Shown here piece after piece: positions 48,259-64,000 of a DNA stretch of 64,000 bases; position 1 is the stretch's first letter, and every line of letters begins with the position of its first letter. This stretch comes from an uncultured Collinsella sp. Lineage in GTDB: Bacteria > Actinomycetota > Coriobacteriia > Coriobacteriales > Coriobacteriaceae. The position numbers and the translations under genes are program-made. The notes beneath the pieces were generated by a model. The model worked only from the letters and a program-made list of their open reading frames with translations. It did not search any database and was not told the DNA's origin. The stretch is from contig CAAFEX010000038.1 in assembly GCA_900762015.1 (NCBI GenBank), positions 6,578 through 70,577 on the forward strand, written 5' to 3'.

Positions 48259-48274
48259 AAGGCACCTTCCCTTC

Positions 48275-48315: not shown

Positions 48316-48353
48316 CAACGGCTGCAGTATAGCGCCGATATGCGACGAATCGC

Positions 48354-49886
48354 CTAGATGTTGAGCGCGTGGTAGGTCACATTCGCGCCCGGAGCGTCAA
48401 CGGTCACGCCATAGGTCTCGGGATAGATGCGCGTCGAAAACACGAGCGAGCCATCGTTCACAAACACCTCGACCGACGAGACATCGCCAACAATGCGCAC
48501 GTTACGAACCTCGTCGACGGGCTCCCAGCGCACGGTGCGACCACAGCCGGCAGAAGCGCGACCCTCATCGGTAAATCGCATCTCAAAGCGCGAGGGCAGT
48601 TCGCCCTCAGCGGGCACAAACGCCAGCTTCAGCTCGCCATCAACGGTCGCGGTGAACGCGTCGTCGACACCGTCAACAACAACGTCAAAGCAGGTATCAC
48701 CGGCAACCTCCAACGAGCCCTCCCCCACACGCACCGAGGCATAATGGCGCTCGATCTCGCGCGCCGGCTGCTGCAGTACCACGCCGCCAGCACCGGCTGT
48801 AAGCTCACGCGGCACCGTCATGCAGTGCTGCCAGCCACACGCCACGGTGGGGTCGTTGCCATAGGTCGGCTCATCGGGCATGCCCATCCAGCCAATCAGA
48901 ATGTGACGACCGTCCTCGGCCGTGAACTCCTGCGGAGCATAGAAGTCAAAACCGGCGTCCCACAGGCGGAACTCGCCCAGCTCATAGGCACCGTCACCAC
49001 CCGTAATGTCGCCCGTTACAGGCATGTAGCCAGCAGCGTATACGTTGCCGCGGTCCCAACGGCCGCCCTCGAGGCCCTGGGGCGAGAAGGACAGCCACTT
49101 CGCCGGTACACCGCCATCCGCCTCAAGCTCAAGGTATCCCGGGCACTCCCACATAAAGCCAAAACGCTCGGGCGTAGACACACGACTCTCGAGCTCCCAA
49201 CTCAGCATATCCGCCGAGCCATACACCAGGATCTCGCCCACATCGCGCCCGGCGCCCTCGCCGTGCATGACGCAAAATCGACTATCGACATGCGGACCAT
49301 CCACGCGGCGACGCGCGCCCAGCACCATGTGATAACGCCCGTCCGCGTCACGCCACACCTTGGGATCGCGCACATGGCAGGTCAAATCCTCGGGATAATC
49401 CTCGGAAGCCAGCACCACGCGCTTGGCGCCAAACGCCTGACCGTCGGTACTCTCCACATAGACGGTATCAGCGCGACGGCCGGTATTGACGTAGTCGTAC
49501 GTCCCGTCCGCATCGGAAAGCTTCACGTTGCCTGTGTACAGCACGCGAATACGGCCGTCCTCGGCAAGCGCGGAGCCCGAATACACACCGTGGCAATCGA
49601 ACGGCTCGTCGGGCAGCAGCGGGGCGCCAACGTAGTCCCACGTCATAAGGTCGCGACTCGTCGCATGACCCCAAGCCTTAACGCCACCCTCGACATCAAA
49701 CGGCGCATACTGAAAATAGGCATGGAACACGCCACCCGCCTGGCAAAGACCGTTGGGGTCGTTGAGCCAGCCCGCCGGCGGCATAATATGGAAGCGCTGG
49801 CCATATACGCCATGACCGCACTCAGAGGCGGCGGCGTCAACAGCGGCAACCAGCTTTGCAAGGTCGCGGCCAAGTGCATTAGACAT
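48354..49886 (-). CDS. scrB: Sucrose-6-phosphate hydrolase (GH32)
   Basis: WLNDPNG, YSGS, RDPKV, WECP and DFYAPQ GH32 motifs; adjacent to PTS gene. Confidence 0.93.
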   Translation of the reverse strand: MSNALGRDLAKLVAAVDAAASECGHGVYGQRFHIMPPAGWLNDPNGLCQAGGVFHAYFQYAPFDVEGGVKAWGHATSRDLMTWDYVGAPLLPDEPFDCHGVYSGSALAEDGRIRVLYTGNVKLSDADGTYDYVNTGRRADTVYVESTDGQAFGAKRVVLASEDYPEDLTCHVRDPKVWRDADGRYHMVLGARRRVDGPHVDSRFCVMHGEGAGRDVGEILVYGSADMLSWELESRVSTPERFGFMWECPGYLELEADGGVPAKWLSFSPQGLEGGRWDRGNVYAAGYMPVTGDITGGDGAYELGEFRLWDAGFDFYAPQEFTAEDGRHILIGWMGMPDEPTYGNDPTVACGWQHCMTVPRELTAGAGGVVLQQPAREIERHYASVRVGEGSLEVAGDTCFDVVVDGVDDAFTATVDGELKLAFVPAEGELPSRFEMRFTDEGRASAGCGRTVRWEPVDEVRNVRIVGDVSSVEVFVNDGSLVFSTRIYPETYGVTVDAPGANVTYHALNI

Positions 49887-49992
49887 ATCAAAGTCCTAAC
49901 GGATCGAAAGTTACAAGGCGCCAGAGATCGGCGCCAAATGCGGGAAACACCCGCGAGCATACAGCCCGCGGGCACCCCTCAATCAAAAGCTC

Positions 49993-51393
49993 TTAGGCCT
50001 GCTCGGAAGCCTTGGGCTCGTCCTTGTACAGGCCAAACGAGATGGCAAAGGAAACCAGCGCGGCGATCGCAAACATGATCGCGTACTGCACGGGCTGGGC
50101 CAGGCACAGCAGAATACCGAAGATACCGGTAACGCCCGTGCCGGAGGCAGCCAGCGAAGTGAGCGCGCAGACCAAGGCACCGCAACCGCCGCCGATGCAG
50201 CCGGCGATGAAGGGCTTAAAGAAGCGCAGGTTCACACCAAAGATGGCAGGCTCGGTAATGCCCATGAAGGCGGACAGGGCCGAAGGAAGCGCCAGACCCT
50301 TGATCTTGGCATCGCGGGTCTTAAAGGCAACGGCGAGTGCGGCGCCACCCTGAGCGATGTTGGCAGCACTGGCGATGGGCAGCCAGTAGGTCACGCCGTA
50401 CTGGGCAAGCTGGCCCAGGTCGATGGCGGTGTACATCTGGTGGATACCGGTAACGACCGTGGGGGCATAGAACAGGCCAACGATAAAGGAACCGATGCCA
50501 AAGGGCAGGGTCAGCAGAGCCTGAATCAGACCGAGGATGGCGTTCTCGGCCCAGACAAAGATGGGGCCGACGGCAACGAGCGTCACGAGTACGGTCACGA
50601 ACACCGAGACGAGCGGGGTCACAAAGAGGTCGAACATCTCGGGAACGATCTTGTGCAGGCGCTTCTCGAGGAAGGCCAGAATGGCGCAGGCGATAACGAT
50701 GGGGATCACGTGGCCCTGATAGCCGACCCACTCAAAGCTGTACACGCCGGGGATGACGGTGACCATGGTCTGAACGCCCTCGGAGGCAACCGTGTAGGCG
50801 CTCTGCAGCGAGGAGTTGATGAACGCACCGCCGACGACAGCACCCAGGTACGGGTTGGCGCCAAAGGCCTTGGCGGCGGAGTAGCCGATCAGGATCTGCA
50901 GAATGCCAAAGGACGTTCCCGAGACCAGGTCGGCGATCTTATAGATAAAGTTATTGGTGTCGAGCGCGATAAAGCCGTTGGAGGCCATAAAGTTGAGGGC
51001 GCTCATAATGCCCAAAAGCAGGCCCGAAGCCACGATGGCAGGGATGATGGGGACAAAGACGTCGCCGAGCACCTTAATGGCACGCATAAAGATGTTCTGC
51101 TGCTGCGCCGCGGCCTCCTTGACCTCGGCCTTGGTGGCAGCCTCGACGCCACTGAGCGCGATGAACTCCTCGTAGACCTTGTTGACGGTGCCGGTGCCAA
51201 AAATAATCTGCAGCTGGCCCTGGGCCTCAAAGACGCCCTTAGCGCCATCGACATTCTCGATGGCCTCCTTGCTAACCTTAGTGTTATCGGCAATCACCAG
51301 GCGCAGGCGAGTGGCGCAGTGCGCGGCCGAAACAACGTTGTCGGCGCCACCGATGTTGTCGAGCACCTCTTGGGCTGATTTGCGGTAGTCCAT
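49993..51393 (-). CDS. scrA: PTS sucrose-type transporter EIIBC
   Basis: HCATRLR EIIB cysteine motif, GITEPAIFG and multiple TM helices; no EIIA domain. Confidence 0.9.
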   Translation of the reverse strand: MDYRKSAQEVLDNIGGADNVVSAAHCATRLRLVIADNTKVSKEAIENVDGAKGVFEAQGQLQIIFGTGTVNKVYEEFIALSGVEAATKAEVKEAAAQQQNIFMRAIKVLGDVFVPIIPAIVASGLLLGIMSALNFMASNGFIALDTNNFIYKIADLVSGTSFGILQILIGYSAAKAFGANPYLGAVVGGAFINSSLQSAYTVASEGVQTMVTVIPGVYSFEWVGYQGHVIPIVIACAILAFLEKRLHKIVPEMFDLFVTPLVSVFVTVLVTLVAVGPIFVWAENAILGLIQALLTLPFGIGSFIVGLFYAPTVVTGIHQMYTAIDLGQLAQYGVTYWLPIASAANIAQGGAALAVAFKTRDAKIKGLALPSALSAFMGITEPAIFGVNLRFFKPFIAGCIGGGCGALVCALTSLAASGTGVTGIFGILLCLAQPVQYAIMFAIAALVSFAISFGLYKDEPKASEQA

Positions 51394-51449
51394 GACTTCC
51401 CTTTCCTCCAACGGGCGCATTTGCACCCGGCCATCTTTGACACTTACAC

Positions 51450-51489
51450 TGTAATCGATTTCAGTTTCATATGTCTGAAATCGTTTTCA
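51450..51489. promoter_or_regulatory. Two LacI-family (ScrR) operators upstream of scrA
   Basis: TGTAATCGATTTCA (51450-51463) and TGAAATCGTTTTCA (51476-51489). Confidence 0.8.
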
Positions 51490-51577
51490 TAGTAGGGTGA
51501 ACGGTAGGAAAAAGCCGGCGAATGGTAGTTTTACGGCAAAAACAGGCGGCTGAGAGGCAGGCAGACGTGCCCAAGAC

Positions 51578-52558
51578 CTAGACATTCATAAGCTGATGGC
51601 CAAGCTTGAGCGTCTTGAGACCGCTCTCCCCCTCCACGCCATCGAGCGTGTTGAGCAACATATTGGTCGCCTCGACGCCACTGGTCAGGTATCCGTAATG
51701 CACGGTGGGAATGCCGCCCGTCAGCGCGCGCAAAAATGCGTTGTCGCCGAAACCGCTCACGCGACGCACACCCTCGCCCATGCCACGCACCTCGTCAAGA
51801 GCGCGCAGAGCGCCGGCCGCCATAGTGTCGGTCGCGCACGCGATAAACGAAACATCGGGGGCATCGGCAAGCAGTTCGCGCGCAGCGCGATAGCCCGAGT
51901 CGAGCGTAAAGGATCCCTGGCGAATCAGGCTCGGATCAAGCACCACGCCCGCAGCGCCCAAGCCAGCCTCAAAACCGCGACGACGGTCGTAACCGGCCGC
52001 GCGGTCTTCTTCGGTAACACCGATGTAGGCGATTTTGCCCTCAGCACGCTTCGCGAGCGCCTGACCCAGCTCGAAAGCGGCCTCGTAATCATCGTGATAA
52101 ACACACGCCGCGCCCTCGACGTTTTGACCAATGACCACAAGGGGTACGCGACAAGACTCAATCGCTCGACGGTGCTCGCCGGTGATCATGGTTGCCACCA
52201 GCACGATGCCGTCGACCGGGTGGTTTTGGAATAAATCGAGATATTCGAGCTCGCGATCGGGGACGTTGTCGGTATTGGCAAGCAACATCTGGTACCCGCG
52301 GCGGCCAAGCACCTGCCCGATGCCCGCCGTAATGCGGCTCACCGACTCGGAATTAATCTTAGGCACGATGACGCCGATGAGCTTGGTGGAGCCGGTACGC
52401 AGCGCGCGAGCCTGGCTGGACCGCACGTATCCGGTCAGCTCAATCGCCTGCTTAATGCGCTCGGCCTTGTCCGCCGAGATATACCCACCGTTGAGGTAGC
52501 GCGAGACGGCGGCGCTCGAAACGCCAGCCAACTCGGCCACATCTTTCATCTTTACCAC
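51578..52558 (-). CDS. scrR: LacI-family repressor of the sucrose locus
   Basis: MKDVAELAGVSSAAVSRYLN HTH plus sugar-binding domain. Confidence 0.9.
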   Translation of the reverse strand: MVKMKDVAELAGVSSAAVSRYLNGGYISADKAERIKQAIELTGYVRSSQARALRTGSTKLIGVIVPKINSESVSRITAGIGQVLGRRGYQMLLANTDNVPDRELEYLDLFQNHPVDGIVLVATMITGEHRRAIESCRVPLVVIGQNVEGAACVYHDDYEAAFELGQALAKRAEGKIAYIGVTEEDRAAGYDRRRGFEAGLGAAGVVLDPSLIRQGSFTLDSGYRAARELLADAPDVSFIACATDTMAAGALRALDEVRGMGEGVRRVSGFGDNAFLRALTGGIPTVHYGYLTSGVEATNMLLNTLDGVEGESGLKTLKLGHQLMNV

Positions 52559-52573
52559 GAGCACCCCTGTCAT

Positions 52574-52587
52574 TGAAATCGCTTTCA
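52574..52587. promoter_or_regulatory. LacI-family operator upstream of scrR (autoregulation)
   Basis: TGAAATCGCTTTCA, same consensus as the scrA boxes. Confidence 0.75.
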
Positions 52588-52641
52588 CCATGATACCCGT
52601 GACGGCGCTTCGGATAAATCAATATCACCCAGGTCGAGCAA

Positions 52642-52760
52642 ACGTCAGCGAGCGGGCAGCTGCCGTGGCGAGGTGCCGCGAAAGAGGAGCGAAGCGTACT
52701 TCATGTACGCGAGCGACGGTTTGAGCGGCAGATCGCCCGGCAGATGCCCGCGCAGCGTCG
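52642..52760. repeat. ERIC-like long imperfect palindrome
   Basis: Nested stems GCGGGCAGCTGCCG/CGGCAGATGCCCGC and TGCCGC/GCGGCA, apical GCGTAC-TTCAT-GTACGC. Confidence 0.6.
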
Positions 52761-52765
52761 AGCGG

Positions 52766-52788
52766 TCCGGCGTTCGTTAGACGCCGGA
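52766..52788 (-). terminator. Hairpin after DUF4956 gene
   Basis: TCCGGCGT/ACGCCGGA stem just past the stop codon; no good U-tract. Confidence 0.4.
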
Positions 52789-52794
52789 ACATAG

Positions 52795-53460
52795 TTATCC
52801 ATGATACTCGCCGTTGTACTGGATGAGGGTCAGGTCCTCAACGCCATCGAGCGTGCGAATCGCGTCGGCATAGGGCATGTCCACGCCGTCCGAGAATACC
52901 TCCACGGCCATCTCGACTTTGTCGCCGTGCATCGTCTTGGACTTAACGGTGAACTTGGTACGCCCAAACGCGCGCACGATATCGTCGCCGGTGGTCTGGC
53001 CCGTGTAGTGAATGACCATCATGTACACGCGCGCCTTGTCCTGATGGCTCGCAAAGCCGGCAATCATCACCACGATCACCACCGCCGTGAGCCCCACGAG
53101 CGCATACATACCGGCTCCCGCCGTAATGCCCGTGGTAATGGACCAAAACAGATACAGCAGGTCGAGCGGGTCCTTGACCGCCGTACGGTAGCGGACGATA
53201 GACAGAGCACCGACCATACCAAGCGAGATGACCACGTTTGTCGAGATCGCGAGCGTGACCATGCAGGTGAGCACGCACATGCCCACGAGCGTCACGGCAA
53301 AACTGCGCGAATAGACCACGCCAGTAAAAAAGCGCTTGTACACGTAGTAGATCAGGATGCCCATGGCGAGCGCCACGAGCAGCGAAAGGCCGATCTTGGC
53401 AGGGTCGACCTGGCCAAACGCCTCCAAGACGGAGTTCTTAAAAAAGTCCCTGGTGCTCAT
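52795..53460 (-). CDS. DUF4956 family membrane protein
   Basis: YSRSF..TL, SLGMVGALSIVRYRTAVKDP and FWSI..G...GAG motifs; about 4 TM helices plus a C-terminal soluble domain. Confidence 0.9.
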   Translation of the reverse strand: MSTRDFFKNSVLEAFGQVDPAKIGLSLLVALAMGILIYYVYKRFFTGVVYSRSFAVTLVGMCVLTCMVTLAISTNVVISLGMVGALSIVRYRTAVKDPLDLLYLFWSITTGITAGAGMYALVGLTAVVIVVMIAGFASHQDKARVYMMVIHYTGQTTGDDIVRAFGRTKFTVKSKTMHGDKVEMAVEVFSDGVDMPYADAIRTLDGVEDLTLIQYNGEYHG

Positions 53461-53463
53461 GGT

Positions 53464-54255
53464 CTAAATATCCCCTCGGTTCCCAAAATCCGATTCCCAG
53501 TAGTTAAAACCGCGCAGGTAGGCGGTCTTGTCATAACACAGGCAGTACTTAGAGACCGCCGTGAGTTCGGCCGCACCCGGCGGCACCATATCGCGCACCA
53601 GCTGTGGGCAAAACTCGGTAAACTTGACCTCCATCACCAGCTTGCCGGGCTCCAGCACGGGCAACGCGGGCAACGTCGCGTCAAAGATGTCAAAGCTCCC
53701 CACCGCCGCACGCACGTTGCTATCAAAGGTAATGCGCACGGTGCCCTCGTCCATCACCCACGGCTCGCGCTCGTAGTCCACGATGGTCCGCGGGCGCATC
53801 ATATTACAGATGCACTCGATGTAGAACTCGCGACAGAGCGGATAGGGGCTCCTCAGCAAAAAGTCGTAGTCGCCAGCCAGAATCTGCTCGAACTCGTCAC
53901 GCGTGAGCGGCGCGTCCTCCTTGTAGATCCAGCTGCCGTACTTCTTTTTGCGCTCGAGCTTAATCACCTTGTCGCTGCCGTTATAGATGCGCACGCGATA
54001 CTTTTTGCGCATGAGAATACCGGCGTCTTTTTCCTCGTAGGCCGAGTTGCAGTAGTCGTCAAAGTACAGGCTGCGAATGGTATAACCGCCCGCCTGCGCA
54101 TGCTTGTCCAGCTTAAACACCGGCGCCATGCGACAGGCAAGCGCGGCGTGCTCGCCCTCGTTAATGAGATATTTGAGCTCGTGGCGGTAACGCTCCTGCG
54201 TGGCACGCACAGGCGGAGCTGCCAAGCGCTCAAGCAGCGCGCTAGCCCTCCTCAT
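53464..54255 (-). CDS. VTC-domain (polyphosphate polymerase-like, CYTH/TTM fold) protein
   Basis: RHELKY, IRSLYFD, KYRVRIY, LERKKK, YERE, RITFD, EVKF and SKY motifs. Confidence 0.92.
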   Translation of the reverse strand: MRRASALLERLAAPPVRATQERYRHELKYLINEGEHAALACRMAPVFKLDKHAQAGGYTIRSLYFDDYCNSAYEEKDAGILMRKKYRVRIYNGSDKVIKLERKKKYGSWIYKEDAPLTRDEFEQILAGDYDFLLRSPYPLCREFYIECICNMMRPRTIVDYEREPWVMDEGTVRITFDSNVRAAVGSFDIFDATLPALPVLEPGKLVMEVKFTEFCPQLVRDMVPPGAAELTAVSKYCLCYDKTAYLRGFNYWESDFGNRGDI

Positions 54256-56011
54256 ACGTATCCTCCACGACCTTACCGCCGTCCTGCACGTAAAAACACT
54301 TCATGCCGTAGTGCTTGCCGTCGTCGGTCACATAGTAGTCAAACGCATCTTGCGTATAGCCGTCGGAGTTGGTGGCGCGCACGCGCACAAAATACTGGCC
54401 GGCATCGGGCGCATCACAGGTCACCTCGGGAAGTAGCACGTCCTCGGCCTTAAAAAGCACGTCGCTTATGGCATAGTCGCGCGCCAGCTCCACGGTATAG
54501 CGAATGTCACGCGCTTTAAAGTCGTAGGACGCATCCCAGTTCATACGCAGCTTACCGTTATCGATCTGCGGCACGCCAATGTAGAACGGCATGGGCTTTT
54601 TATAGCTCTCGCAGTAGCTCTTATAGTTCTCCTCGATCTCGGAGGGAATCGCCGCGGCGATCTGCTCGTATTGGTCCTTGGTGACAGGCAGATTGTCGGT
54701 ATCGGGCGAAGCAAAGACCAGCGATTCGGTAACCTCGCGATAATGTTTGATCATCTTGGCCAGGCGCGCCTCGGTCATATACGAGCGCAGGTCCTTTACG
54801 GCGCGGTCGAGCTCACTGCGAAACGCCTTACTGCGCAGCGCACGATTGAATAGCACGTTGCCCCAGTAGTTGCTTACGCCGCGCTCCCAGCTCGCATAGT
54901 CCGAGAACCCGGTAAGAGAAAGCTCCAGCTTACGCAGCATGCCGTCGTTATCCCAATCCAGGATATACCAGACCTTGGAGTTAAGCGGGCTGTACAGATA
55001 GCAGTTACGGTTCTGCGTATCGCAGTTGCCCGTCAGGATCTGAAACGCCAGCCAATAGACCAGATTCTCGGTATCAAAGTAGGTGTCGAGCACGTTATCG
55101 ATCTTTTGCGATTCGTCGTTGAGCGCATCGAGCATCTCGATGAGCTTGGTGTGGTCCGAATCGCCCTTAATCTCGAGCATGCCCTCGAAGTTTGCCTGGT
55201 TGTAGTCGGGATCGTCGGCAAGCTTAATGGTGTCCTCGTAGCGATGGAAATCAAAGCTGTTCACCTTGTACAGGTACCCGCTCTTATCCAGGCCATGTGC
55301 CTTAAGCGCCGTCTTGTTGAGCTGCTCCACCTGCGTAAACAGGCCGTAGTCCTCAAAGGTATCGTTGGACTTTTCGGTCTGGTCGCACACCCACAGATGC
55401 ACAAACTGCGTACGCAGGCCCATCATCTGGGGAATCCCGCGGATAAGGTCGTAGGCCATCTTGTTGCGAAAACGCATACCCTCGCCCATGTGCTTGTTGA
55501 GCGCAATCGCGCGCTGTTGGCGCCAGGTGCCCTTGCCCTTTTTGAGCTCCACCTTGTAATTCTTTTGCGTGTAGGAGCTCGATGTCTGGCCGCGCACCTG
55601 CACGGTGGCATTGGGCGCTTCCTCGCCATAGCCAACCTCGCCGGCCACCGGGCCGTCTTCGTCGCCCGCCTGCAGCAGGCCCATAACCTGATAGCGCGTC
55701 ACGCCCATGTCGGCATAGTCATACACCGAGTACGTGTTGATCTCGGCCCAGCTATGGTCCGTGTTCTCGGAGCTGTTGCCGCGAGAGACCGTCAGATACA
55801 TGGTCACAATGCCCGAGTCATCATAGACCTCGTACAGCTCGTCCTTATCGCGCAGATGCTTGGACTGGGCGGAGGCCTCGGCCTTTTTAATCTTGTCCTG
55901 CTTTTTTACCTTATTTGTCGAGGATTCGTCCTGAGATGAGCAGCCTGAAAGCAGCAGCGCGCCGGCAGCCGCCTCGATCAGACAGCGGCGAGACATCAAC
56001 TTATCGATCAT
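54242..56011 (-). CDS. CotH kinase family lipoprotein
   Basis: VRGQTSS..QKNYK, NCYLY and WDND motifs; N-terminal SRR..LLLSGC (twin-Arg plus lipobox); C-terminal beta-rich FN3-like segment. Confidence 0.88.
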   Translation of the reverse strand: MIDKLMSRRCLIEAAAGALLLSGCSSQDESSTNKVKKQDKIKKAEASAQSKHLRDKDELYEVYDDSGIVTMYLTVSRGNSSENTDHSWAEINTYSVYDYADMGVTRYQVMGLLQAGDEDGPVAGEVGYGEEAPNATVQVRGQTSSSYTQKNYKVELKKGKGTWRQQRAIALNKHMGEGMRFRNKMAYDLIRGIPQMMGLRTQFVHLWVCDQTEKSNDTFEDYGLFTQVEQLNKTALKAHGLDKSGYLYKVNSFDFHRYEDTIKLADDPDYNQANFEGMLEIKGDSDHTKLIEMLDALNDESQKIDNVLDTYFDTENLVYWLAFQILTGNCDTQNRNCYLYSPLNSKVWYILDWDNDGMLRKLELSLTGFSDYASWERGVSNYWGNVLFNRALRSKAFRSELDRAVKDLRSYMTEARLAKMIKHYREVTESLVFASPDTDNLPVTKDQYEQIAAAIPSEIEENYKSYCESYKKPMPFYIGVPQIDNGKLRMNWDASYDFKARDIRYTVELARDYAISDVLFKAEDVLLPEVTCDAPDAGQYFVRVRATNSDGYTQDAFDYYVTDDGKHYGMKCFYVQDGGKVVEDTYEEG

Positions 56012-57545
56012 CAGAACCTCCCCAATGGTTGCGATACACGCGAGCTACTGCGCGCTGAAACGCGCCGTGTGGCACGCCCTTATGGCGACCTTCCTCATAG
56101 CGCTGCTCGGCACGGTCGAGCAAGCGGCCCAGCTGTGTAAAACGACCCGTTTTGTCGGTCGCCACAATGGGCTGCTGGCTCAGGATACGATACGGCAAGT
56201 TGGCGGTATAGGTATCGAGCCGCAGCAGGGCCACGATAAAAAACACCACCGCACCCAACAAAAAGCCAAAGCCGTAAAACTGCTGCGGCAAAAGCAACGA
56301 CACGGCGGTCGCCAGCCCTACCACACCGGCAAACAGGCCCGAGGCCAGAACGGCTCCCTTGTAGTCGGTAAAGTACAGCAAGATAAGCAGGATCGTGTTG
56401 CCCACGGCATACAGGCCGTAGCCTACGCATAACGTGCGAAAATACCCGTGCATAAGATTGTTAAAGCCCAGCGGCAGGGCCGAGAGCACTGTGGTCTCGA
56501 GCGAGATGACCGCCGCGGTCACAAACAGCTGCTTGAGCGCGCAAAAGCGCAGTTCGCTGTTGAGCGTGGAGAGCATCTCCTCCTCGGCCACCACAATATC
56601 GCCCACCACGCCGCCGTCGTTAAACAGGCTGTAGTAGTCACGGTAGCGCGGATAGAAATTGACCTCGACCGACACCACAAAGTTGACGGTCGTGACGAGT
56701 GTGGTCAAAAACGCAATGAGTGCCGGAACGTCATGGTAAGGAGCCCCGTAAAACAGGCCTTTGATCTGCACGCCAATAGGGCCCGCCCAGATAATAACCA
56801 AGTGTGCGAAAAGTCCCAAGTTGGTAAACAGCCCCGTAAGCGCAAGCGGCATAAATTGGTCGAGCCAGCGCAAAAAACGCCAGGGACTCCGATCACTCTG
56901 TGGAAAATACCGGTACAGCAGTACCACATCCCAGGCAAGCATGACGCCGTAGCCTAGGGCGATTGACGCCAACAGGCCCTCGACCGGCGGCAGTCCCAAC
57001 GCCAGCGCTGCCAGGGCGCACAGGCACGCCACGCCAATGGCGGCCGCAAAGCTGCACAGAATGCCACGATAATCTTTGATGGCCGTGAGATAGCTCATGC
57101 CGTTCCAGTTGACGATCATGATGTTGAAGAGCCACAGGCACAGCAGCCCCTGCAGCAGCGTGGCCCCCGAGAACAGCAAAAAGACGCCGTAGAGCACCGT
57201 GCCCGAAACGAGCATGATGGCATTAGATCCCCAAAACGAAGGCAGGATCTCATCCTCGCGCTCGGCAAAGAGCATGTCGGCCAAAAAGCGCGTGACCGGC
57301 ATGGAGAAAAAGCTTGTGAGCGTAAGCGACGCCAGCAGCGTATAGGTCACCATGCACACCAGCAGATCCTGGTTGGCGCGGCCCACACCCCACAGACCGC
57401 ACAGCACCAAGATACCCACCTGGAGCAGCACGCCAAGCAGCATGGGGCCCGTGCACACAATGCCGGCGTAGCCATAGGCGCGCATCGTAGCAAACAGACC
57501 CTTGCGCCTAAACAGGCGTTTGAGCTCAAAACCGATTCCGGCCAC
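56001..57545 (-). CDS. pelG: Exopolysaccharide Pel transporter PelG
   Basis: MAGIGFEL start, GP, TRFLAD and Y(H)DVP..AFL motifs; about 12 TM helices. Confidence 0.93.
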   Translation of the reverse strand: MAGIGFELKRLFRRKGLFATMRAYGYAGIVCTGPMLLGVLLQVGILVLCGLWGVGRANQDLLVCMVTYTLLASLTLTSFFSMPVTRFLADMLFAEREDEILPSFWGSNAIMLVSGTVLYGVFLLFSGATLLQGLLCLWLFNIMIVNWNGMSYLTAIKDYRGILCSFAAAIGVACLCALAALALGLPPVEGLLASIALGYGVMLAWDVVLLYRYFPQSDRSPWRFLRWLDQFMPLALTGLFTNLGLFAHLVIIWAGPIGVQIKGLFYGAPYHDVPALIAFLTTLVTTVNFVVSVEVNFYPRYRDYYSLFNDGGVVGDIVVAEEEMLSTLNSELRFCALKQLFVTAAVISLETTVLSALPLGFNNLMHGYFRTLCVGYGLYAVGNTILLILLYFTDYKGAVLASGLFAGVVGLATAVSLLLPQQFYGFGFLLGAVVFFIVALLRLDTYTANLPYRILSQQPIVATDKTGRFTQLGRLLDRAEQRYEEGRHKGVPHGAFQRAVARVYRNHWGGSDDR

Positions 57546-57548
57546 CGG

Positions 57549-58976
57549 CTACTCCCCCTCTCTGGGCAGGTCAAACGCACGCGCCGTCTCGTTGTACAGC
57601 GCGCGATAGTTGGCGAGCATCTGCTCGTGCAAAAAGTACGTGGAAACGCGACGCTGGCCGCGCTCCCCCATCTCAATGCGGCGGGCGCGGCTCGCGCACA
57701 TGCGCTCCATGGCATCGGCCAAGCCCTTGCGATACATGGGCGGCGTCAAAAAACCTGCCACGCCAAAGTCATCGCCCGGGGCGCCTTCGAGCAGCTCGCG
57801 GCAGCAGCCCACCTCGGTCGTCACGCAGGGACGGCGCGCTGCAAGCGACTCCAGCACGCTGAGCGGCTGGCCCTCGGAGATGCTCGTCAAAATGGTAAAG
57901 TCGAGCTTTTCCATGTACTCGACCACGTTGACGCGACCGGTAAAGATCAGGTCGCGCACGCCCAGGGTATCGACGAGCGCATGGCACTCGGCACCGTACT
58001 CCTCGTCGTCTACGCCGCCCATGATGTGCAGACGCACCTTGGGCAGGCGCTCGTGCAACTCAAAGAAGGCATAGATCATGGTCTTGACGTCCTTGATGGG
58101 CGCCAGACGCACCACCGCGCCAATGTCCACCCAGCCGTCATCGGGCTTTAAGGGGATGTCCTTAAAGCGGTCAAACTGGATGCCGTTGGGGATGACCAGA
58201 CATTTGTCCGCATCGCAGCCCATATCGATCTGCGTCTTGCGGGCGTTATGAAACAAGCTCGTCACGCGGAAGGCGCGGCGGTAAATCTCCTCCGAAAGCA
58301 GGTAGAAAAAGCGAATCCAGCGGTCCTTAAACGACGGCACGACCCAGTCGGCGCGAATGATCTCTTCCTCGCGCTCGCGGGTATAAATGCCGTGCTCGGT
58401 CAACAGCACAGGAGCCTGGTGAACGCTTGAGCCCAGGCAGGCGAGCAGGCCGCCGTAGCCGGTCGAGATGGCGTGGTACACATCGGCCACCGGCACCTCG
58501 CTGCCCAGAAGGTAGAGCACGGGCAGCAGCATGGAGCGCATGGTGTGGAATGCATCGGCAAAGGGCGTGTAGGGGTACTCGGCCAGGCACACGTCGCGAA
58601 AGATATCCATAAACGTGCGGCTCTGCAAAAACGAGAGCGGATGCACGCGACGGCGCTGGAAGATATCGAACAACACGTCCCAGTCCGGATTGGAGAGCGA
58701 TACCAGGCGGCGCAGTGCCTCGCGCTCGCGGGCGTTAAAGTCGGCCTCTTCTTGCTCGCCCGAAAGGCGCAGGGCGTCGTCCAGAAACACCTCGTGTACC
58801 TCGACCACGTTGCCGGGCAGCTCGTAGACAAACTTGCCTCGGTCGGCAGCATGCGCGCCAATCACCCACAGCACAAACTCGTGCTCGGGCATGGCCTGTA
58901 TGTAGCCGTGCATCCAGGTGGACACGCCGCCGTGCACATAGGGGTAGCAGCCCTCGAGTACCAAGCAGATTCTCAT
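57549..58976 (-). CDS. pelF: GT4 glycosyltransferase PelF
   Basis: EGCYPYVHGGVSTW, HAISTGYGG, LTEHGIYTRER, PIKDVKT and SISEGQPL motifs. Confidence 0.95.
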   Translation of the reverse strand: MRICLVLEGCYPYVHGGVSTWMHGYIQAMPEHEFVLWVIGAHAADRGKFVYELPGNVVEVHEVFLDDALRLSGEQEEADFNAREREALRRLVSLSNPDWDVLFDIFQRRRVHPLSFLQSRTFMDIFRDVCLAEYPYTPFADAFHTMRSMLLPVLYLLGSEVPVADVYHAISTGYGGLLACLGSSVHQAPVLLTEHGIYTREREEEIIRADWVVPSFKDRWIRFFYLLSEEIYRRAFRVTSLFHNARKTQIDMGCDADKCLVIPNGIQFDRFKDIPLKPDDGWVDIGAVVRLAPIKDVKTMIYAFFELHERLPKVRLHIMGGVDDEEYGAECHALVDTLGVRDLIFTGRVNVVEYMEKLDFTILTSISEGQPLSVLESLAARRPCVTTEVGCCRELLEGAPGDDFGVAGFLTPPMYRKGLADAMERMCASRARRIEMGERGQRRVSTYFLHEQMLANYRALYNETARAFDLPREGE

Positions 58977-60853
58977 TTGTCGCCACCCTCCTTGCGTGCA
59001 ATGGTCACCGTCTTGTCCGTGGCTTTAACCAGATACAGATCGCCCGTCAGATGCGTAATCTCGCCACCCGTGACTGCACCCGGCTCGCCGTTGTTGGCGC
59101 GGAACATGAGCCACGCCTCGTCGTGAAAATTGCCCAGGCTGAGCGTCCAAGCATCCGCGCTGGTATCCACGCTCACCGTCACGGACGAAAAGCGTTGGAT
59201 GGCACCGGAGCACTCCGACGCCGTCTGGTGCCGCAGATCGGGCGCGGATTTGGTAAGCCAGTCCAGGTAGTCGGTCAGGCCGCCCTTGTAGACCTCCCAG
59301 CCCTCCTTGGCGCCGCGATCGGGATCTAGCAGATCGTCCGGGTGCATAAAATGCGTACTCACGTAGTGCATGTTGAGCTCGGACACGGCTGCCAGGCGCA
59401 TATAGGAATCGTTGACCATGCCGCCCGAGACAATACGCGGTTGTTCCACAATGCCGTCGCTCGCCACGCCAAACTCCTGCACGTAGGGCAGGTCGGTACC
59501 GTCCTCAAAATACGTACTGGCAATGGTCTTAATGCGCGGAACGTCGGTGCCGATGAGCTTGCGCGCTCGGGCCGAAAGGATATTCGACGGCGGCACGTAA
59601 ACCGAGCCATGAGCGTTGGGCAGGACCTCGTCCTGAAACGCGATAAGTTCGTTGAGCGAAGCGACAAGCGTCTCTTTGTTCTTCCAAGTCTTGTAGACGT
59701 ACAACGTACCATAGTCGGTGTCCCAGAGCGCAAGCGGCTGATGGTTGTAGCCGTGAAAGCCCAGCTCGCCGCCCATCTGCAGCAGCATGCCGCCAAAATA
59801 GCGGAACTGCGTGGTATCGGCCTGTCGCGCGGGCTCGGTCTGGTTGACCGCGTCCTCGTAGTTTTCGATCATCACGCCGGTATAGCGAATGCCGTATTTT
59901 TGCGCGAGCTTTTGCAGATCGGGCCACCAGACCTTGGTGTAAAAATCGGCAATGGAAAGGCCGTAGTCACGCTTGATATAGGTGCCGTCGCCCGAGGGCA
60001 CGGGGCTGGGAAAGTCGTCCAGATAGAAGACGGCGCTGTTGATGACGGGGTAGGCCGTGGCATCGCCCAGCAGGCTGATCGCCGCGGCGTAAAAACCGCG
60101 CATGACCTTGTCATAGATACCGATATTGCACACCACGGTGCGACCGCTACCGCAGTCATTCGACCAAATGAGCGGGGCGCCCGCATCGCCGGTCTTAGCC
60201 CACACACGAGCCGTCTCGCGCAGCGAAACCGAAAGCGACGAATCAAAGGGGTCCGAGAGCTCGTAGCGCTCTCCCCCGCCCAGCATAAAGTCCTCGCTCG
60301 GCACAATGCTTTCGGCTTTTACATAGCCATATCCGGCAGATTCAATGCCAAGCTTGGGAGCAATCACTTGCAGATAGCCCGAGTTATCCGGAGGCATGGC
60401 GAGCATAAGCGAACCGCCGGCACTCACCCAACTCATAATGTCGCTCAGGTGCGTACCGAGCCCATCGAGCGACGGCATGAGCAAAACCACGCGATCGTAG
60501 GAGGTCAGCGAGGGAATGGCATCCGCGCCGTCCAGCGCAAGGTCCACGTCGCGGTGCGCGATCTTCATGTCGAGCAGAATCTGGTCGAACTGCTCCTTTA
60601 CGTCCTCGACGCCAGCTTGATCGGAATCGGTAATGACCAGGCACGTGGGCTTTTGGCCAAATATTGCCGAGGAGGCCGGAACCGCATCGTTGGCGGCAAG
60701 CATCCCCAGCTTATGCTGGCCCGCACTGTACTGCACGCCGGCGCGCTCCACCAGCAGCACGGCCGCCATGGCAATAAAGACCGCCCACACCACAAGCAGC
60801 CCCATCCAGCGAAAATGGCCCGCACGGGCGCGGATATGCTGTACCACGCTCAT
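58973..60853 (-). CDS. pelA: DUF2194 / PelA deacetylase-like membrane-anchored protein
   Basis: N-terminal TM helix; YLDDFPSP, ELGFHGYNH, YVPPSN and HFMHPDD (CE4-like); ATGA overlaps on both sides. Confidence 0.82.
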   Translation of the reverse strand: MSVVQHIRARAGHFRWMGLLVVWAVFIAMAAVLLVERAGVQYSAGQHKLGMLAANDAVPASSAIFGQKPTCLVITDSDQAGVEDVKEQFDQILLDMKIAHRDVDLALDGADAIPSLTSYDRVVLLMPSLDGLGTHLSDIMSWVSAGGSLMLAMPPDNSGYLQVIAPKLGIESAGYGYVKAESIVPSEDFMLGGGERYELSDPFDSSLSVSLRETARVWAKTGDAGAPLIWSNDCGSGRTVVCNIGIYDKVMRGFYAAAISLLGDATAYPVINSAVFYLDDFPSPVPSGDGTYIKRDYGLSIADFYTKVWWPDLQKLAQKYGIRYTGVMIENYEDAVNQTEPARQADTTQFRYFGGMLLQMGGELGFHGYNHQPLALWDTDYGTLYVYKTWKNKETLVASLNELIAFQDEVLPNAHGSVYVPPSNILSARARKLIGTDVPRIKTIASTYFEDGTDLPYVQEFGVASDGIVEQPRIVSGGMVNDSYMRLAAVSELNMHYVSTHFMHPDDLLDPDRGAKEGWEVYKGGLTDYLDWLTKSAPDLRHQTASECSGAIQRFSSVTVSVDTSADAWTLSLGNFHDEAWLMFRANNGEPGAVTGGEITHLTGDLYLVKATDKTVTIARKEGGDK

Positions 60854-61755
60854 CGGACCTCCTCTCCGTTGCGCCAAAACGCCAGTTCCTCGCGGTTGGC
60901 GGCGCTCAAGTATACATGCTGTTTGTCAATCGCATCGATCACGCGGTGGACCTCGTCACCGTCGCGGCGCATCACCGCAAGGCGCAGACAAAGCATCCAA
61001 ACCTCCTGCTCCTCGGGCACGTCTATCACCAGCTGGTCGGTCACGGCCTGCGCCTCGTCGATCTGTCCGACATCGGCCAGCGCCGTCGCGTATCGAATGC
61101 GCAGCTCAAGGGTATCCTCGCGCTCGCAGCGACGCGCAAGCAGGCGCGCGTACTGTTGGCGCTGAATCTGAGCCACGCGCCCCTCAGCCAAGCCCGAGCA
61201 CAAGTATTCACCAAGAAAATCGCAGTATTCGTTGAGGTTTTGCGCGCTCGGGTCCGTCTTAAAGGCACGCTCCAGCTGCTGCAGTTTAAGGTCGGACTCC
61301 TTGGAGATCTGCGCCACCGCCGTCGCGGCATAGTGCGCCACCTCAACGTCATCGTTAAGCTTAGCCGCCTGCAGCTGCGCCAGGTACGCGTCGGGTTCCT
61401 CGGTGAGCATGGAGAGCATTAGGCGGCGCCGGTATGCCGGGTCGTTGACGATGAGCGCCTCCTCGAGCGGCACTACGCCTGAATCGTCCTCACCACTCGG
61501 TACCGACATACTACGATGCAGGTCGTCGTTGAAGCGCAGCGATTCCAGCTCAGACTCTTTCAGCCCCTCGCGAAACACCGCGCTGCGGACCGATAGCAGA
61601 ACCACCAGCAACGGGCCCCACAGCGGCACCAGCACTATCACAGCCAGCATGTGCCCGCGCACCGGCAGCAGGCCCAGCTTCATGAGCGTCCACAGCATCA
61701 GGCAAACCAGCGCATGAATCAGCAGCAAGACGGCAGCAACGACAAGCGAGATCAA
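60850..61755 (-). CDS. pelE: PelE-like protein (two TM helices plus helical repeats)
   Basis: N-terminal TM helices; VVPLEEAL, RRRLML and NDDVEVAHYAATA motifs; TPR-like C-terminus; position between pelD and pelA. Confidence 0.72.
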   Translation of the reverse strand: MISLVVAAVLLLIHALVCLMLWTLMKLGLLPVRGHMLAVIVLVPLWGPLLVVLLSVRSAVFREGLKESELESLRFNDDLHRSMSVPSGEDDSGVVPLEEALIVNDPAYRRRLMLSMLTEEPDAYLAQLQAAKLNDDVEVAHYAATAVAQISKESDLKLQQLERAFKTDPSAQNLNEYCDFLGEYLCSGLAEGRVAQIQRQQYARLLARRCEREDTLELRIRYATALADVGQIDEAQAVTDQLVIDVPEEQEVWMLCLRLAVMRRDGDEVHRVIDAIDKQHVYLSAANREELAFWRNGEEVR

Positions 61756-63890
61756 GCGGCACCCCCCTCACCGTCACCGGTGTAAGCGATGTGCTGCAGC
61801 AGCGCCACGATGTCCTCGCCGTCGACGGGCTCCACCGCAATATGCTTTGCGCTCAGGCGCTCGCGGATAATGGGCAGATCGCACGCCTTTGCCTGGCGCA
61901 TAAGCAGGTAGAGCACGTCGCCGTCGACCAAGCCCGCCGCGTCGCTCTCGCGAATTGCCGACCCAATTGCGCCCACCAGCTCGCCGACAGGTTCCATGCC
62001 CGGTACCACGCGCAGGAGCAAAAAACTCCCCATCTTGCTATCTGCCAGCGCCTGCTCCGCCGCGAGCTCTTGGCCAAAGGCAGCCTGCTTGAGCACGCAA
62101 GTGCCGTCAACGCAGCGTTTATCCTGCGCCACCGCCTCATAATCAAAGGCACGGCCCAGCGCACTTTCGACCAGGCCGCACAAGATGCGGAACAGGTTTT
62201 GATAATAGAGGGTCATTTGGTTTTCGGCCGCACTACGTACAAAGATCAACACGGCGGGTGCCCCGTCGCGCTCGATCGCATATCCAAACATGGGAAGCCC
62301 CGGCGTCAGCTCGCGGTTCACCCACAGGTTCGAACGACCCCCGTCGCCCAAAAGAGGTGCAAGCTGCTCAAGCGCGAGCGAGCGTGCGGCATTTTCGGCA
62401 ATCGCAGGACTTGCTGCCACCAGGCGTGCAAATGCCCCGCCCGAAACATGGTAGATCGCCACGAAATCGTTCTCGAGGATCTCGCCCAAAAGCTCGCAGC
62501 ACTTGCGATAGATGTCGCGTGGGTTGAGCACGTCGAGCTCCTGCGTCACCGCAAAGATCTTGCCAAAGCTGTCGTGGCGACCCACGATCTGGCGCCTGTA
62601 CGCGCGCTTATCCTCGATCGCGTCGTGGTAGAGCTGCGTAAGAAACGTATTACGGTTGCGCACGAGCTCGTTTTGATCGCGCTCCGCCCTAATGGCTTCG
62701 CTGTTGCGCAGCTGCACATAGCCGCACACGGCACCCACCACAAAGTACGCAATATACGGCAGCCAGTTGGACGGCTCGTAGAACAGCCCCTGGAAGGTAT
62801 AGCCGTACTGAGTAAAGTAGCTCGCGGCCAAACCCACCGACGCCAGCAGCGCCGCAACCAGGCCAAAGTCCAAGCCATACAGCGTGCCGATCATCACCAC
62901 GTAGAGTAGGCGATAATCGAGCACGTTGAGCTGGGCCGATTGAGAGAACAGATGCTCCAGCACCTCGAACAGAACCCAGGCAACGCCCGTCTCCAGGCAT
63001 TTAATAGGCAGCGTGCGCATTTGGATGCGGTCGATGGCGGCGCGCAAGGGGTTGACCTTCTTTGCGCGGCCAGCATCCCAACGCGCTTGAATGGTCGAAA
63101 GATCGCGCAGCAAGTCGTAGCGCTGAAACCAGCCATAGCGCACGCGAGCGACGTCGTTGGCGGGCAGGTTGTAGCCGGCAGAATCGCCATAGGCAACGGC
63201 AAGGCCGGGGAACAACGCCTTGAGGGCGTCCCCCACCTCACCCGCCGTGTGATGGAAGGCATCGGCAACGTCGAGCGTCTCAAAGGAGGCGTCCCAGCTG
63301 TCGAAGATACGGCGTACTAGCACCGCGAGCTCCTCGGTGCACAGCAGGGGAAACGCCGCATCCTGCGCGCCCTGCAGAGCAACCGAGCCGGTCGAGCACG
63401 CATCGAACAGCGGCACCAAAAACGGGTCCTCCATCGCGGCAGACGCGGTATACAGGAACGGCACGCGCAGGATCTTGGTCTGAACGCCCTCGCGAGCAGC
63501 GTAGTAGCGGCACAGGTCGTTGGCTGCGCGGGCGATAATGCCCTTGCCCGTTCGCCCCGCGGCGTCGGTGGCACCCTCGGCACCCGCGGGCCCCGCTACA
63601 TACAGCAGTTGGACCCGGCGACCCGCGCACGCACGAAAGACCGAGCGCAACAGCTCGATATCGCCCACGGTATCGGTATGCGGGGTAAGGTAATTGGAAA
63701 GGTAGACCATGCGGTCGAACTCGTAGGCCTGATCCAGGTGTTGCAGAAGCTCTTTCCACGAGGAATGGGGCGACGACTCGTCGCGGTACGCGTCCTGCGC
63801 GGCTACGACCTGCACATGGTCCCCGGGGAACGCCTTGGCACAAAAGTCATCGTCAACATATGCGGTGTTGCCAACAACCAGCACCTCCAT
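61752..63890 (-). CDS. pelD: PelD-like protein: degenerate SDR/epimerase + TM + GAF + degenerate GGDEF with RxxD site
   Basis: SDR-like N-terminal half, four TM helices, DSFGKIF..QELD coiled coil, GAF-like region, IRESD I-site followed by VDGDV. Confidence 0.8.
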   Translation of the reverse strand: MEVLVVGNTAYVDDDFCAKAFPGDHVQVVAAQDAYRDESSPHSSWKELLQHLDQAYEFDRMVYLSNYLTPHTDTVGDIELLRSVFRACAGRRVQLLYVAGPAGAEGATDAAGRTGKGIIARAANDLCRYYAAREGVQTKILRVPFLYTASAAMEDPFLVPLFDACSTGSVALQGAQDAAFPLLCTEELAVLVRRIFDSWDASFETLDVADAFHHTAGEVGDALKALFPGLAVAYGDSAGYNLPANDVARVRYGWFQRYDLLRDLSTIQARWDAGRAKKVNPLRAAIDRIQMRTLPIKCLETGVAWVLFEVLEHLFSQSAQLNVLDYRLLYVVMIGTLYGLDFGLVAALLASVGLAASYFTQYGYTFQGLFYEPSNWLPYIAYFVVGAVCGYVQLRNSEAIRAERDQNELVRNRNTFLTQLYHDAIEDKRAYRRQIVGRHDSFGKIFAVTQELDVLNPRDIYRKCCELLGEILENDFVAIYHVSGGAFARLVAASPAIAENAARSLALEQLAPLLGDGGRSNLWVNRELTPGLPMFGYAIERDGAPAVLIFVRSAAENQMTLYYQNLFRILCGLVESALGRAFDYEAVAQDKRCVDGTCVLKQAAFGQELAAEQALADSKMGSFLLLRVVPGMEPVGELVGAIGSAIRESDAAGLVDGDVLYLLMRQAKACDLPIIRERLSAKHIAVEPVDGEDIVALLQHIAYTGDGEGGAA

Positions 63891-64000
63891 GGCGCACCCC
63901 TCCCCTAAAATCCACTCTGTTCATAGTCAAACATGCGTATTTTACGCTGTCAACGCGAGCTGGAAAGCCTTTAAGGCTGTTTTAAGAACTTTTTTGAGGA

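Follow-up and report, generated by a model that had tools for sequence, protein, structure and literature searches.

A Collinsella pel operon with an accessory CotH, VTC and DUF4956 trio, a portable gene set that may link polyphosphate to a surface kinase

The closest described relatives of the locus reported here are the Pel exopolysaccharide operons of the pelDEA(DA)FG type described by Whitfield et al. (2020; PMC7112168). In the streptococcal and clostridial loci presented there, genes for a CotH-like kinase, a poly-phosphate polymerase, a DUF4956 protein and a DUF4832 protein are contiguous with pelDEA(DA)FG, while the bifidobacterial loci carry a diguanylate cyclase/phosphodiesterase (DGC/PDE) gene in place of the DUF4832 gene. 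According to the same paper, streptococcal, clostridial and actinobacterial species with these accessory genes tend to have a PelD bearing an extra, catalytically degenerate N-terminal epimerase domain; streptococcal PelD is described as lacking a GGDEF domain and Bacillus cereus PelD as binding cyclic di-GMP (c-di-GMP). Its discussion proposes regulation via protein phosphorylation, and Collinsella aerofaciens C11 and 'indica' appear in its supplementary PelG table. Here we analyze a 64,000-nucleotide window from an uncultured Collinsella sp. (GenBank assembly GCA_900762015.1, contig CAAFEX010000038.1, forward-strand positions 6,578 to 70,577; source genome G000, 88% complete in 115 contigs), which harbors an eight-gene operon of this kind at positions 52795..63890 of its minus strand. 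The last three genes of the operon encode a CotH kinase-domain protein, a VTC-domain protein and a DUF4956 membrane protein, and it is this trio, and the question of whether it serves polyphosphate (polyP) chemistry at the cell surface, that concerns us.

In Streptococcus intermedius, all three accessory genes have been deleted (mBio, 2025; PMC12345266), namely SIR_1594 (CotH), SIR_1593 (polyP polymerase domain) and SIR_1592 (a DUF4956 protein, with an MgtC-type transmembrane (TM) part and an ACT domain). As reported there, loss of SIR_1594 led to less Pel and loss of SIR_1592 to more Pel, and in artificial sputum medium each of these two mutants showed reduced aggregation; for the SIR_1593 mutant, aggregation and cell-pellet Pel are reported, with no change named in the accessible text. 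That text further states that the syntenic arrangement of the trio is not found outside Pel loci, and it describes MgtC as a regulatory membrane protein acting on ATP synthase and phosphate signalling. A first, sequence-only reading of the window had supposed that characterized pel operons contain no kinase or polyP genes. This was wrong, as PMC7112168 describes such genes and PMC12345266 deletes them. As an architecture the locus was known before, even for the host species group, and the published catalogue of Pel operons gains nothing from it; the interest that remains lies in the function of the widespread cotH-VTC-DUF4956 module.

The operon comprises eight co-oriented open reading frames (ORFs), all on the minus strand: a pelD-like gene (61752..63890; 712 amino acids, aa), a pelE-like gene (60850..61755; 301 aa), pelA(DA) for a DUF2194 deacetylase-like protein (58973..60853; 626 aa from the ATG at 60853), pelF for a GT4 glycosyltransferase (57549..58976; 475 aa), pelG for a polytopic membrane protein with many TM segments (56001..57545; 514 aa), cotH (54242..56011; 589 aa), the VTC-domain gene (53464..54255; 263 aa) and the DUF4956 gene (52795..53460; 221 aa). 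The genes are tightly packed, with a 4-nt overlap at pelD/pelE, ATGA junctions at pelE/pelA (using the ATG at 60853) and pelA/pelF, a 3-nt gap at pelF/pelG, overlaps of 11 nt at pelG/cotH and 14 nt at cotH/VTC, and a 3-nt gap at VTC/DUF4956; the eight genes and all of these junctions, as listed in the sequence-only reading, were reproduced exactly. A purine-rich ribosome-binding stretch lies 5' of each of the eight starts. The longest pelA ORF begins at TTG 60877, and the ATG at 60853 is preceded by the Shine-Dalgarno sequence GGAGAGGAGG. Profile hidden Markov models confirmed PelF, PelG, DUF2194, CotH, VTC and DUF4956, with weaker evidence for the PelD- and PelE-like proteins, and the host, which had been guessed to be a gut actinobacterium, belongs to the C. 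aerofaciens group of Collinsella. That reading was right on the genes, on their tight packing into an operon and on the host, and wrong in its premise on known pel operons. Its tailoring module, in which the trio would phosphorylate Pel or matrix proteins, is a conjecture; the results presented here fit an extracytoplasmic kinase paired with a Vtc4-like enzyme.

Set against the group described in PMC7112168, the Collinsella operon has the same eight families, with the trio immediately after and contiguous with pelG and with PelD extended by a degenerate epimerase-like N-terminus, but it lacks the fourth accessory gene (DUF4832 or DGC/PDE) and has a LacI/sucrose cluster past DUF4956; DUF4832 was not found in the 88% complete genome G000. 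Compared with the S. intermedius cluster as described in PMC12345266, the order cotH, VTC, DUF4956 after pelG is the same, CotH is predicted to be secreted in both, and the MgtC/ACT-like character of the streptococcal membrane protein is independently confirmed below for the Collinsella DUF4956 protein. S. intermedius has a glycoside hydrolase, SIR_1591, whereas the Collinsella operon has no hydrolase gene. Collinsella genome G000 contains 11 GGDEF matches, none of them on the operon contig, and its PelD-like protein has an RxxD motif, in contrast to the streptococcal PelD without a GGDEF domain.

Our preferred interpretation, which we put forward tentatively and with clearly less than even confidence, is that this is a pelDEA(DA)FG operon whose published accessory trio acts as a polyP-to-surface-kinase module, tuning Pel output or modifying the matrix. 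In such a scheme, a cytoplasmic Vtc4-like VTC protein would make polyP at the membrane together with an MgtC-like DUF4956 partner; the two would pass polyP, or phosphoryl groups, to the outer face; and a lipid-anchored, extracytoplasmic CotH would receive them, with Pel, matrix proteins or outward-facing portions of the Pel machinery as its targets. Four elements of the scheme are inferred: polyP synthesis by VTC, any transfer across the membrane by DUF4956, the use by CotH of polyP and not ATP, and the identity of the phosphorylated target.

The VTC-domain protein matches PF09359 at 112 bits and is soluble, with neither a TM segment nor an SPX domain found in it. Sequence searches of the PDB with the single protein or with a narrow alignment (A1) gave no match, and only a broader family profile (A3), built from 23 diverse VTC sequences, reached yeast Vtc4 (3g3q, E 1.9e-23), with Vtc2 (3.2e-12) and Vtc3 (3.3e-8) behind it. 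The residues invariant in the 23 sequences (K28, R87, R89, E101, K103, K112, R163, R174, E209, K211, S235 and K236) align in the same order to Vtc4 K200, R264, R266, E279, K281, K294, R361, R373, E426, K428, S457 and K458, of which K200, R264, R266, E426 and K458 are catalytic residues of Vtc4. The catalytically impaired form of yeast Vtc4 is R264A/R266A/E426N (PMC9911596). An AlphaFold model of the Collinsella protein (predicted local distance difference test score, pLDDT, 85.2) has Vtc4 3g3r as its top Foldseek match (E 2e-14, TM-score 0.65) and matches other tunnel enzymes more weakly (ygiF, E 9.5e-10). Since the family profile matches catalytic Vtc4 far better than the non-catalytic Vtc2 and Vtc3, the protein looks catalytically competent, and its catalytic set and modeled fold point the same way, toward a Vtc4-like triphosphate tunnel enzyme resembling polyP polymerases. 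A canonical PPK1 is encoded in G000, in which PPK2 was not found; because PPK1 is already present, the VTC gene would provide an additional polyP-type enzyme specific to this locus. The eukaryotic VTC complex (Vtc4/Vtc3 or Vtc2/Vtc1; 3g3q, 7ytj, 8i6v) has the catalytic tunnel domain and a membrane partner in common with the Collinsella pair, but the Collinsella polypeptide carries no SPX or TM domain of its own and its partner appears MgtC-like, not Vtc1-like. In yeast, the polyP made by Vtc4 passes, coupled to its synthesis, through a membrane channel with a lining of basic residues (PMC9911596).

The DUF4956 protein, which exceeds the cut-off of PF16316 (44.5 bits against 30.6), has five predicted membrane-part helices and a C-terminal ACT-like domain. 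Its structural model (pLDDT 76.5) combines an N-terminal helix with five more in the hydrophobic part, and the C-terminal domain has the topology beta-alpha-beta-beta-alpha-beta. With Foldseek the model gave weak ACT-like matches (E 3e-3 to 6e-3), including the MgtC C-domains 7qa5 and 2lqj, and nothing Vtc1-like; a PDB sequence search gave no match, and a protein atlas queried with DUF4956 returned only DUF4956 clusters, none with a structure. Profile comparison with an actinobacterial MgtC protein (hhalign) gave a probability of 94.6% (E 6.9e-8, 144 columns), while the Pfam MgtC model was not reached (9.3 bits against a cut-off of 31.4, E 1.9). These comparisons of profiles and models suggest that DUF4956 is a remote relative of MgtC and not a Vtc1-like protein. 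With the MgtC/SapB family it would share a helical membrane part followed by a C-terminal ACT-like domain, but it differs in falling under the Pfam MgtC cut-off and in being partnered with a VTC-domain gene in every case. Residues Y41, F54, G84, R90, R92, D100 and G111 are invariant, and R90 and R92 adjoin the third helix.

The CotH protein comprises a lipoprotein signal, a CotH kinase domain at residues 137-464 (PF08757, 227 bits) and a C-terminal Ig/FN3-like domain. Its N-terminus, MIDKLMSRRCLIEAAAGALLLSGC, resembles a twin-arginine lipoprotein signal (SRR...LLSGC); among close orthologues the lipobox Cys is kept in 12 of 12 and the RR in 9 of 12, and TatC is encoded in G000. From the signal, the conservation of the lipobox and the presence of TatC, CotH is predicted to be an exported lipoprotein. 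The protein aligns to B. cereus CotH (5jd9, E 9.2e-7), its D331 and D354 corresponding to D224 and D247, which we equate with D228 and D251 of B. subtilis CotH because the 23-residue spacing is identical. The B. subtilis kinase is inactivated by D228Q and D251A, as described in PMC7821199. D331 and D354 are invariant across 15 CotH sequences, and even three distant CotH proteins of free-standing modules retain N329, D331, W353 and D354, so that the catalytic residues appear intact and the kinase looks active. With the Bacillus CotH kinase (5jd9, 5jda), which phosphorylates Ser residues of spore-coat substrates, it shares the kinase domain family and both inactivation-sensitive Asp residues, but the Collinsella protein is a predicted exported lipoprotein with the additional C-terminal domain. 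Collinsella is not known to sporulate.

To place the trio, genomes were surveyed at three levels: 24 other genomes of the genus, a class sample of 200 Coriobacteriia plus G000, and a phylum sample of 200 Actinomycetota plus G000. PelG was found in 13 of the 24 same-genus genomes, and in 12 of these a CotH match follows the PelG match by ~580 nt on the same contig and strand; in the 13th (G001), pelG lies 681 nt from a contig end. In the class sample, 18 of 201 genomes had PelG over the cut-off, being G000, 16 of 41 same-genus genomes and G032 from another family, and VTC lies ~2 kb beyond PelG on the same strand in 16/16 of the same-genus genomes. VTC itself occurs in 51 of the 201, and in 34 of the 51 it is not Pel-linked. 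In the pel cluster of G032, the protein in the PelD position is short (470 aa) and has no Pfam hit, a 212-aa epimerase is encoded separately, and the module is absent, the VTC gene of this genome lying ~650 kb away. In the phylum sample, VTC and DUF4956 occur in the identical 16 of 201 genomes and are adjacent in all 16. CotH lies within ~3 kb of the pair in ten of these; one more has it on a different contig, and the other five gave no CotH match. PelG exceeded the cut-off in only three genomes of this sample (G000, G051 and G093), of which G051 and G093 lack all three families, and it was found in 0/15 of the other Actinomycetota carriers of the VTC/DUF4956 pair. Among the control genomes, CotH, VTC and DUF4956 all match in B. 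thetaiotaomicron, C. glutamicum and M. acetivorans, and PelG matches only in T. maritima. The survey bears out the pelG-cotH-VTC linkage within Collinsella but not a restriction of the module to Pel.

Fourteen of the 15 non-Pel loci were annotated (G109 was left out as a same-genus duplicate of G094). In G151, VTC, DUF4956 and CotH stand with a 754-aa protein of no recognized family, a HEAT-repeat protein and a GT2 resembling chitin synthases, and this array faces genes for GGDEF, RR-HD and Hpt proteins; G192, a Collinsella, has the same regulators with VTC and DUF4956 broken. An RsgI-like gene precedes VTC, DUF4956 and CotH in G218, whereas in G037, G094 and G165 Cthe_2159 takes the place of CotH after VTC and DUF4956, together with a two-component system. 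The trio with a doubled CotH lies within a Wzx-type polysaccharide cluster in G110 and G193, CotH is fused to lamin-tail domains in G047, G089 and G223, and the neighbors in G128, G188 and G224 are PIG-L, LicD/cytidylyltransferase, NUDIX or PhoU-like genes. A further set, compared by description only, is NELoc-2 of C. perfringens, which, according to PMC11677781, encodes a CotH kinase and a pair of proteins with polyphosphate-polymerase domains alongside a HEAT-repeat protein, a glycosyltransferase and a polysaccharide deacetylase; it resembles the VTC/DUF4956/CotH/HEAT/GT2 locus of G151 and, as described, has no Pel genes.

CotH, VTC and DUF4956 form a portable set found with surface-glycan loci of several types, and their co-occurrence outside Pel loci makes a function specific to Pel unlikely. 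VTC and DUF4956 constitute the conserved core, to which an exchangeable exported partner is added, either CotH or Cthe_2159. Among the sampled genomes, the strict order cotH, VTC, DUF4956 is found only at Pel loci, so that the synteny statement, in the form given in PMC12345266, holds for gene order and fails for co-occurrence.

The G151 locus (L086, G151:C2:45000-64999; trio intact) and the G192 locus (L087, G192:C1:183000-202999) are the non-Pel trios beside GGDEF, RR-HD and Hpt genes. The three loci with Cthe_2159, a carbohydrate-binding protein of PF14262, come from another Coriobacteriales family (L089, L090 and L092, from G037, G094 and G165); a divergent OmpR-type response regulator and a histidine kinase accompany L089 and L090, and the kinase alone was seen in L092. 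A differently built pel-like cluster in G051 (L101, G051:C1:1798000-1817999) encodes a hybrid histidine kinase, a 1104-aa HEAT/TPR protein, a PelD with GAF and GGDEF domains, PelF and PelG, together with an Agd3-type deacetylase bearing CBM87 and a Spherulin4 protein; it carries no CotH module. Natural fusions (P0021 and P0150, DUF4956 with VTC; P0342, CotH with VTC) were considered as evidence of coupling and set aside, the clusters holding 1-3 sequences that may be frameshift artefacts.

Protein identities cross lineage boundaries. The Pel-linked VTC is 66-72% identical to proteins labelled Lachnospiraceae or Eubacteriales, DUF4956 is 69% identical to Bifidobacterium proteins, and CotH is 62-69% identical to many metagenomic proteins, whereas the free-standing actinobacterial copies are distant wherever a BLASTP match was found (25-38% for VTC, 20-47% for DUF4956). 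This pattern suggests that the eight-gene unit may be transferred as a whole from one phylum to another. A VTC gene 98% identical to that of Collinsella is found in a genome labelled Sodaliphilus (L079, CAVKNR010000085.1); the label or the binning is probably wrong, because the phylum sample taken around that genome's entry, G238, gave the same hits as the Actinomycetota sample around G000.

The nearest loci form a set of 80 near-identical sequences, 77 of them titled Collinsella, including C. aerofaciens. All eight genes reach at least 95% of their length in 41 of the 80, most shortfalls lying at contig ends. The ratio of nonsynonymous to synonymous substitutions (dN/dS; Nei-Gojobori, ratio of sums) over these 41 complete loci, which are close kin and so allow a description and not a test, was 0.031 for DUF4956, 0.048 for VTC, 0.065 for pelA and for pelF, 0.067 for pelG, 0.101 for cotH, 0.173 for pelD and 0.188 for pelE. 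The three accessory genes are under strong purifying selection.

For the pel genes proper, the strength of assignment varies along the operon; the product expected of such operons is a polymer rich in GalNAc and partly deacetylated. The pelA product, with one N-terminal TM helix, matches DUF2194 (PF09960) at 577 bits across the full profile length; PelF, with DUF3492 and GT1 domains, reaches 322 bits with the equivalog NF038011 (cut-off 100); and PelG reaches 457 bits with PF16933 (cut-off 29). The PelD-like protein has a degenerate SDR (short-chain dehydrogenase/reductase)/epimerase-like N-terminus, a TM region and a C-terminal RxxD. Its residues 112-270 weakly resemble NAD-dependent epimerases/dehydratases (7epr, E 0.0055; 3wmw, E 0.0094) with the YxxxK position lost, giving a catalytically degenerate N-terminal domain as in the published extended PelD, and residues 303-397 give a weak DUF4118 match (25.2 bits, under the cut-off). 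No Pfam GAF or GGDEF match was found in it, and a PDB sequence search did not reach PelD 4dn0. Inspection of the translation by eye revealed R647-E-S-D650 followed by DGDVL, an RxxD that looks like an I-site in front of a degenerate GGDEF domain, in the manner of B. cereus PelD, which binds c-di-GMP. The PelE-like protein has N-terminal hydrophobic helices and a TPR region (TPR_19, E 2.4e-4, below the Pfam cut-off); its assignment rests on the position of the gene between pelD and the DUF2194 gene.

Scanning of the operon interior for consensus promoters and terminators gave no excess over chance, with 5 promoter-like sites against 4.8 expected. Upstream of pelD, the sole sigma-70-like consensus match is a candidate promoter at 63939..63966 on the minus strand (TTTCCA, 16 nt, TAAAAT), which with 9/12 matches is not above chance; the contig ends ~400 nt upstream of pelD. 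A few bases past the DUF4956 stop, RNA folding of 52592-52800 (minus strand) placed a GC-rich, terminator-like hairpin without a U tract at 52766..52788, also on the minus strand, which the consensus terminator scan did not call. This spacer as a whole folds far better than its shuffles (z -3.98). Between the DUF4956 stop and the LacI start, positions 52624-52700 hold a ~75-nt multi-copy intergenic repeat with 75-96% identity in Collinsella genomes, found in six copies in G021, three in G003, two in G024 and one in G004. Base composition was considered as a sign of a foreign island and proved uninformative (GC 0.54-0.63 in the operon, 0.58-0.64 in adjacent sequence from 46000).

The sequence 3' of the operon holds an unrelated cluster, recognized with Pfam and NCBIfam models, of LacI (51578-52591), sucrose phosphotransferase system (PTS) IIBC (49993-51426) and GH32 (48354-49886) genes. 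The cluster, within 48273-52752, varies between genomes as an insertion/deletion: the pel operon of G003 lacks it and adjoins sequence that matches 47273-48273. At its other end, the G003 operon (L083, G003:C12:58000-67973) has AAA_21 ATPase and reverse-transcriptase genes upstream of pelD, in what looks like a defence-type variable region. Another Collinsella locus (L103, G024:C31:21000-25529), in a genome without PelG and CotH, keeps LacI, a 215-aa DUF4956 ORF and a 154-aa VTC fragment, with a 151-nt deletion at the DUF4956/VTC junction and the VTC fragment joined to a fragment of an AAA_21 gene; as an AAA_21-family gene lies upstream of pelD in G003, a deletion of cotH through pelD would explain this scar. 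In the isolate Collinsella sp. OF03-4AA (L067, QSCH01000027.1), the pelD, pelA, pelG and cotH ORFs are shortened in the contig interior, which may be a decaying operon in a cultured isolate or may be sequence errors.

The proposal of a polyP-to-surface-kinase module is favored by the obligate pairing of VTC with DUF4956, the exported third partner, the intact catalytic sets, the separate cytoplasmic PPK1 and the secreted-glycan settings of the loci; by analogy, the coupling of synthesis to translocation in yeast (PMC9911596) would offer a precedent, and DUF4956 has invariant basic residues of its own in R90 and R92. A number of observations weigh on the other side. We know of no CotH-fold kinase that takes polyP as donor. 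DUF4956 is related to MgtC, which is not known as a channel, and has no similarity to the TM channel of the Vtc1 type. CotH is missing from the five of 16 carriers noted above, and Cthe_2159 replaces it in three of the four such loci annotated; as the pair occurs without CotH, feeding a kinase cannot be the sole role of VTC and DUF4956. The selection on the trio was seen in loci that are not independent samples, about a dozen Collinsella loci have interior breaks in operon genes, and one species retains only a remnant. A literature search yielded no biochemical data on any bacterial VTC-domain or DUF4956 protein. Finally, the S. intermedius deletions, as reported in PMC12345266, lack a single shared phenotype, and the opposite effects of losing CotH and DUF4956 argue against a simple linear pathway from VTC through DUF4956 to CotH. 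A bolder version, in which VTC/DUF4956 would be the bacterial counterpart of the yeast polyP synthase-translocase and a Tat-exported CotH the first of its fold to use polyP, phosphorylating Pel or matrix proteins outside the cell, we regard as a long shot.

Among the alternatives, the most probable, which we nevertheless judge unlikely, is the hypothesis of Whitfield et al. (2020): CotH would phosphorylate outward-facing Pel machinery or another envelope protein and thereby set the amount of Pel, while VTC and DUF4956 would act on phosphate or energy status and would not supply the kinase. Phosphorylation-based regulation is what the discussion of PMC7112168 proposes, and the opposite shifts in Pel on deletion of CotH and DUF4956, as well as the MgtC-like nature of DUF4956 and the role of MgtC in ATP synthase and phosphate signalling described in PMC12345266, fit it. 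So does the distribution of PelD types, the extended, degenerate-epimerase PelD co-occurring with the module and the short PelD with a separate epimerase gene in G032 occurring without a module at the pel locus. Against this, an exported lipoprotein kinase would have no obvious supply of ATP, the same families occur next to unrelated glycan loci, where there are no Pel proteins to be regulated, and the model offers no account of why VTC and DUF4956 are strictly paired and accompanied by an exported third partner.

We consider it less probable again that polyP is itself a matrix component, with VTC/DUF4956 exporting anionic polyP to cross-link a cationic, partly deacetylated Pel and CotH acting independently, for example on matrix proteins. 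The Vtc4-like catalytic residues of VTC with its obligate membrane partner would suit such a role, as would the presence of PPK1 to serve the cytoplasm; Pel was described as cationic in the sequence-only reading, and a DUF2194 deacetylase-like gene is present. However, the module also accompanies polysaccharide loci whose charge is not established, polyP export is a prediction only, and the report on the S. intermedius VTC mutant, in the text available, gives aggregation and Pel without naming a change (PMC12345266).

Slightly further down in our estimate, and improbable, is a role in cytoplasmic phosphate economy, whereby VTC would be a tunnel enzyme of another activity (a triphosphatase, or the maker of a local polyP store) tethered by the MgtC-like protein, and the link to Pel would be one of nucleotide-sugar or phosphate budgeting. 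The tunnel fold is common to triphosphatases and class IV cyclases, which appear as the weaker matches of the model (such as ygiF), DUF4956 is MgtC-related, and a PhoU_div gene lies near one VTC/DUF4956 pair; yet the profile favors catalytic Vtc4 far over other tunnel enzymes, the Vtc4 catalytic set is invariant, and the third partner is exported wherever it is present. That the trio was merely co-transferred with pel and has no functional tie to it would suit its free-standing occurrence in most carriers (15 of 15 other Actinomycetota carriers without PelG; 34/51 Coriobacteriia VTC carriers unlinked), but is very improbable given its translational coupling to pelG through the 11-nt overlap, its complete linkage in every Collinsella genome where this is testable, the strong purifying selection on it and the published effects of deletions on Pel and aggregation (PMC12345266).

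What is new here for those who work on these systems is the occurrence of the trio outside Pel loci, the core of VTC plus DUF4956 with an exchangeable exported partner, and a membrane partner that appears MgtC-like and not Vtc1-like. If VTC/DUF4956 does export polyP or phosphoryl groups to an exported kinase, phosphate chemistry would reach the outside of the bacterial membrane by a route not described before, and a CotH that uses polyP would solve how bacteria phosphorylate where ATP is absent. Such export would also provide a new means of tuning biofilm matrices in abundant gut commensals such as Collinsella, Bifidobacterium and Lachnospiraceae, and in streptococcal pathogens.

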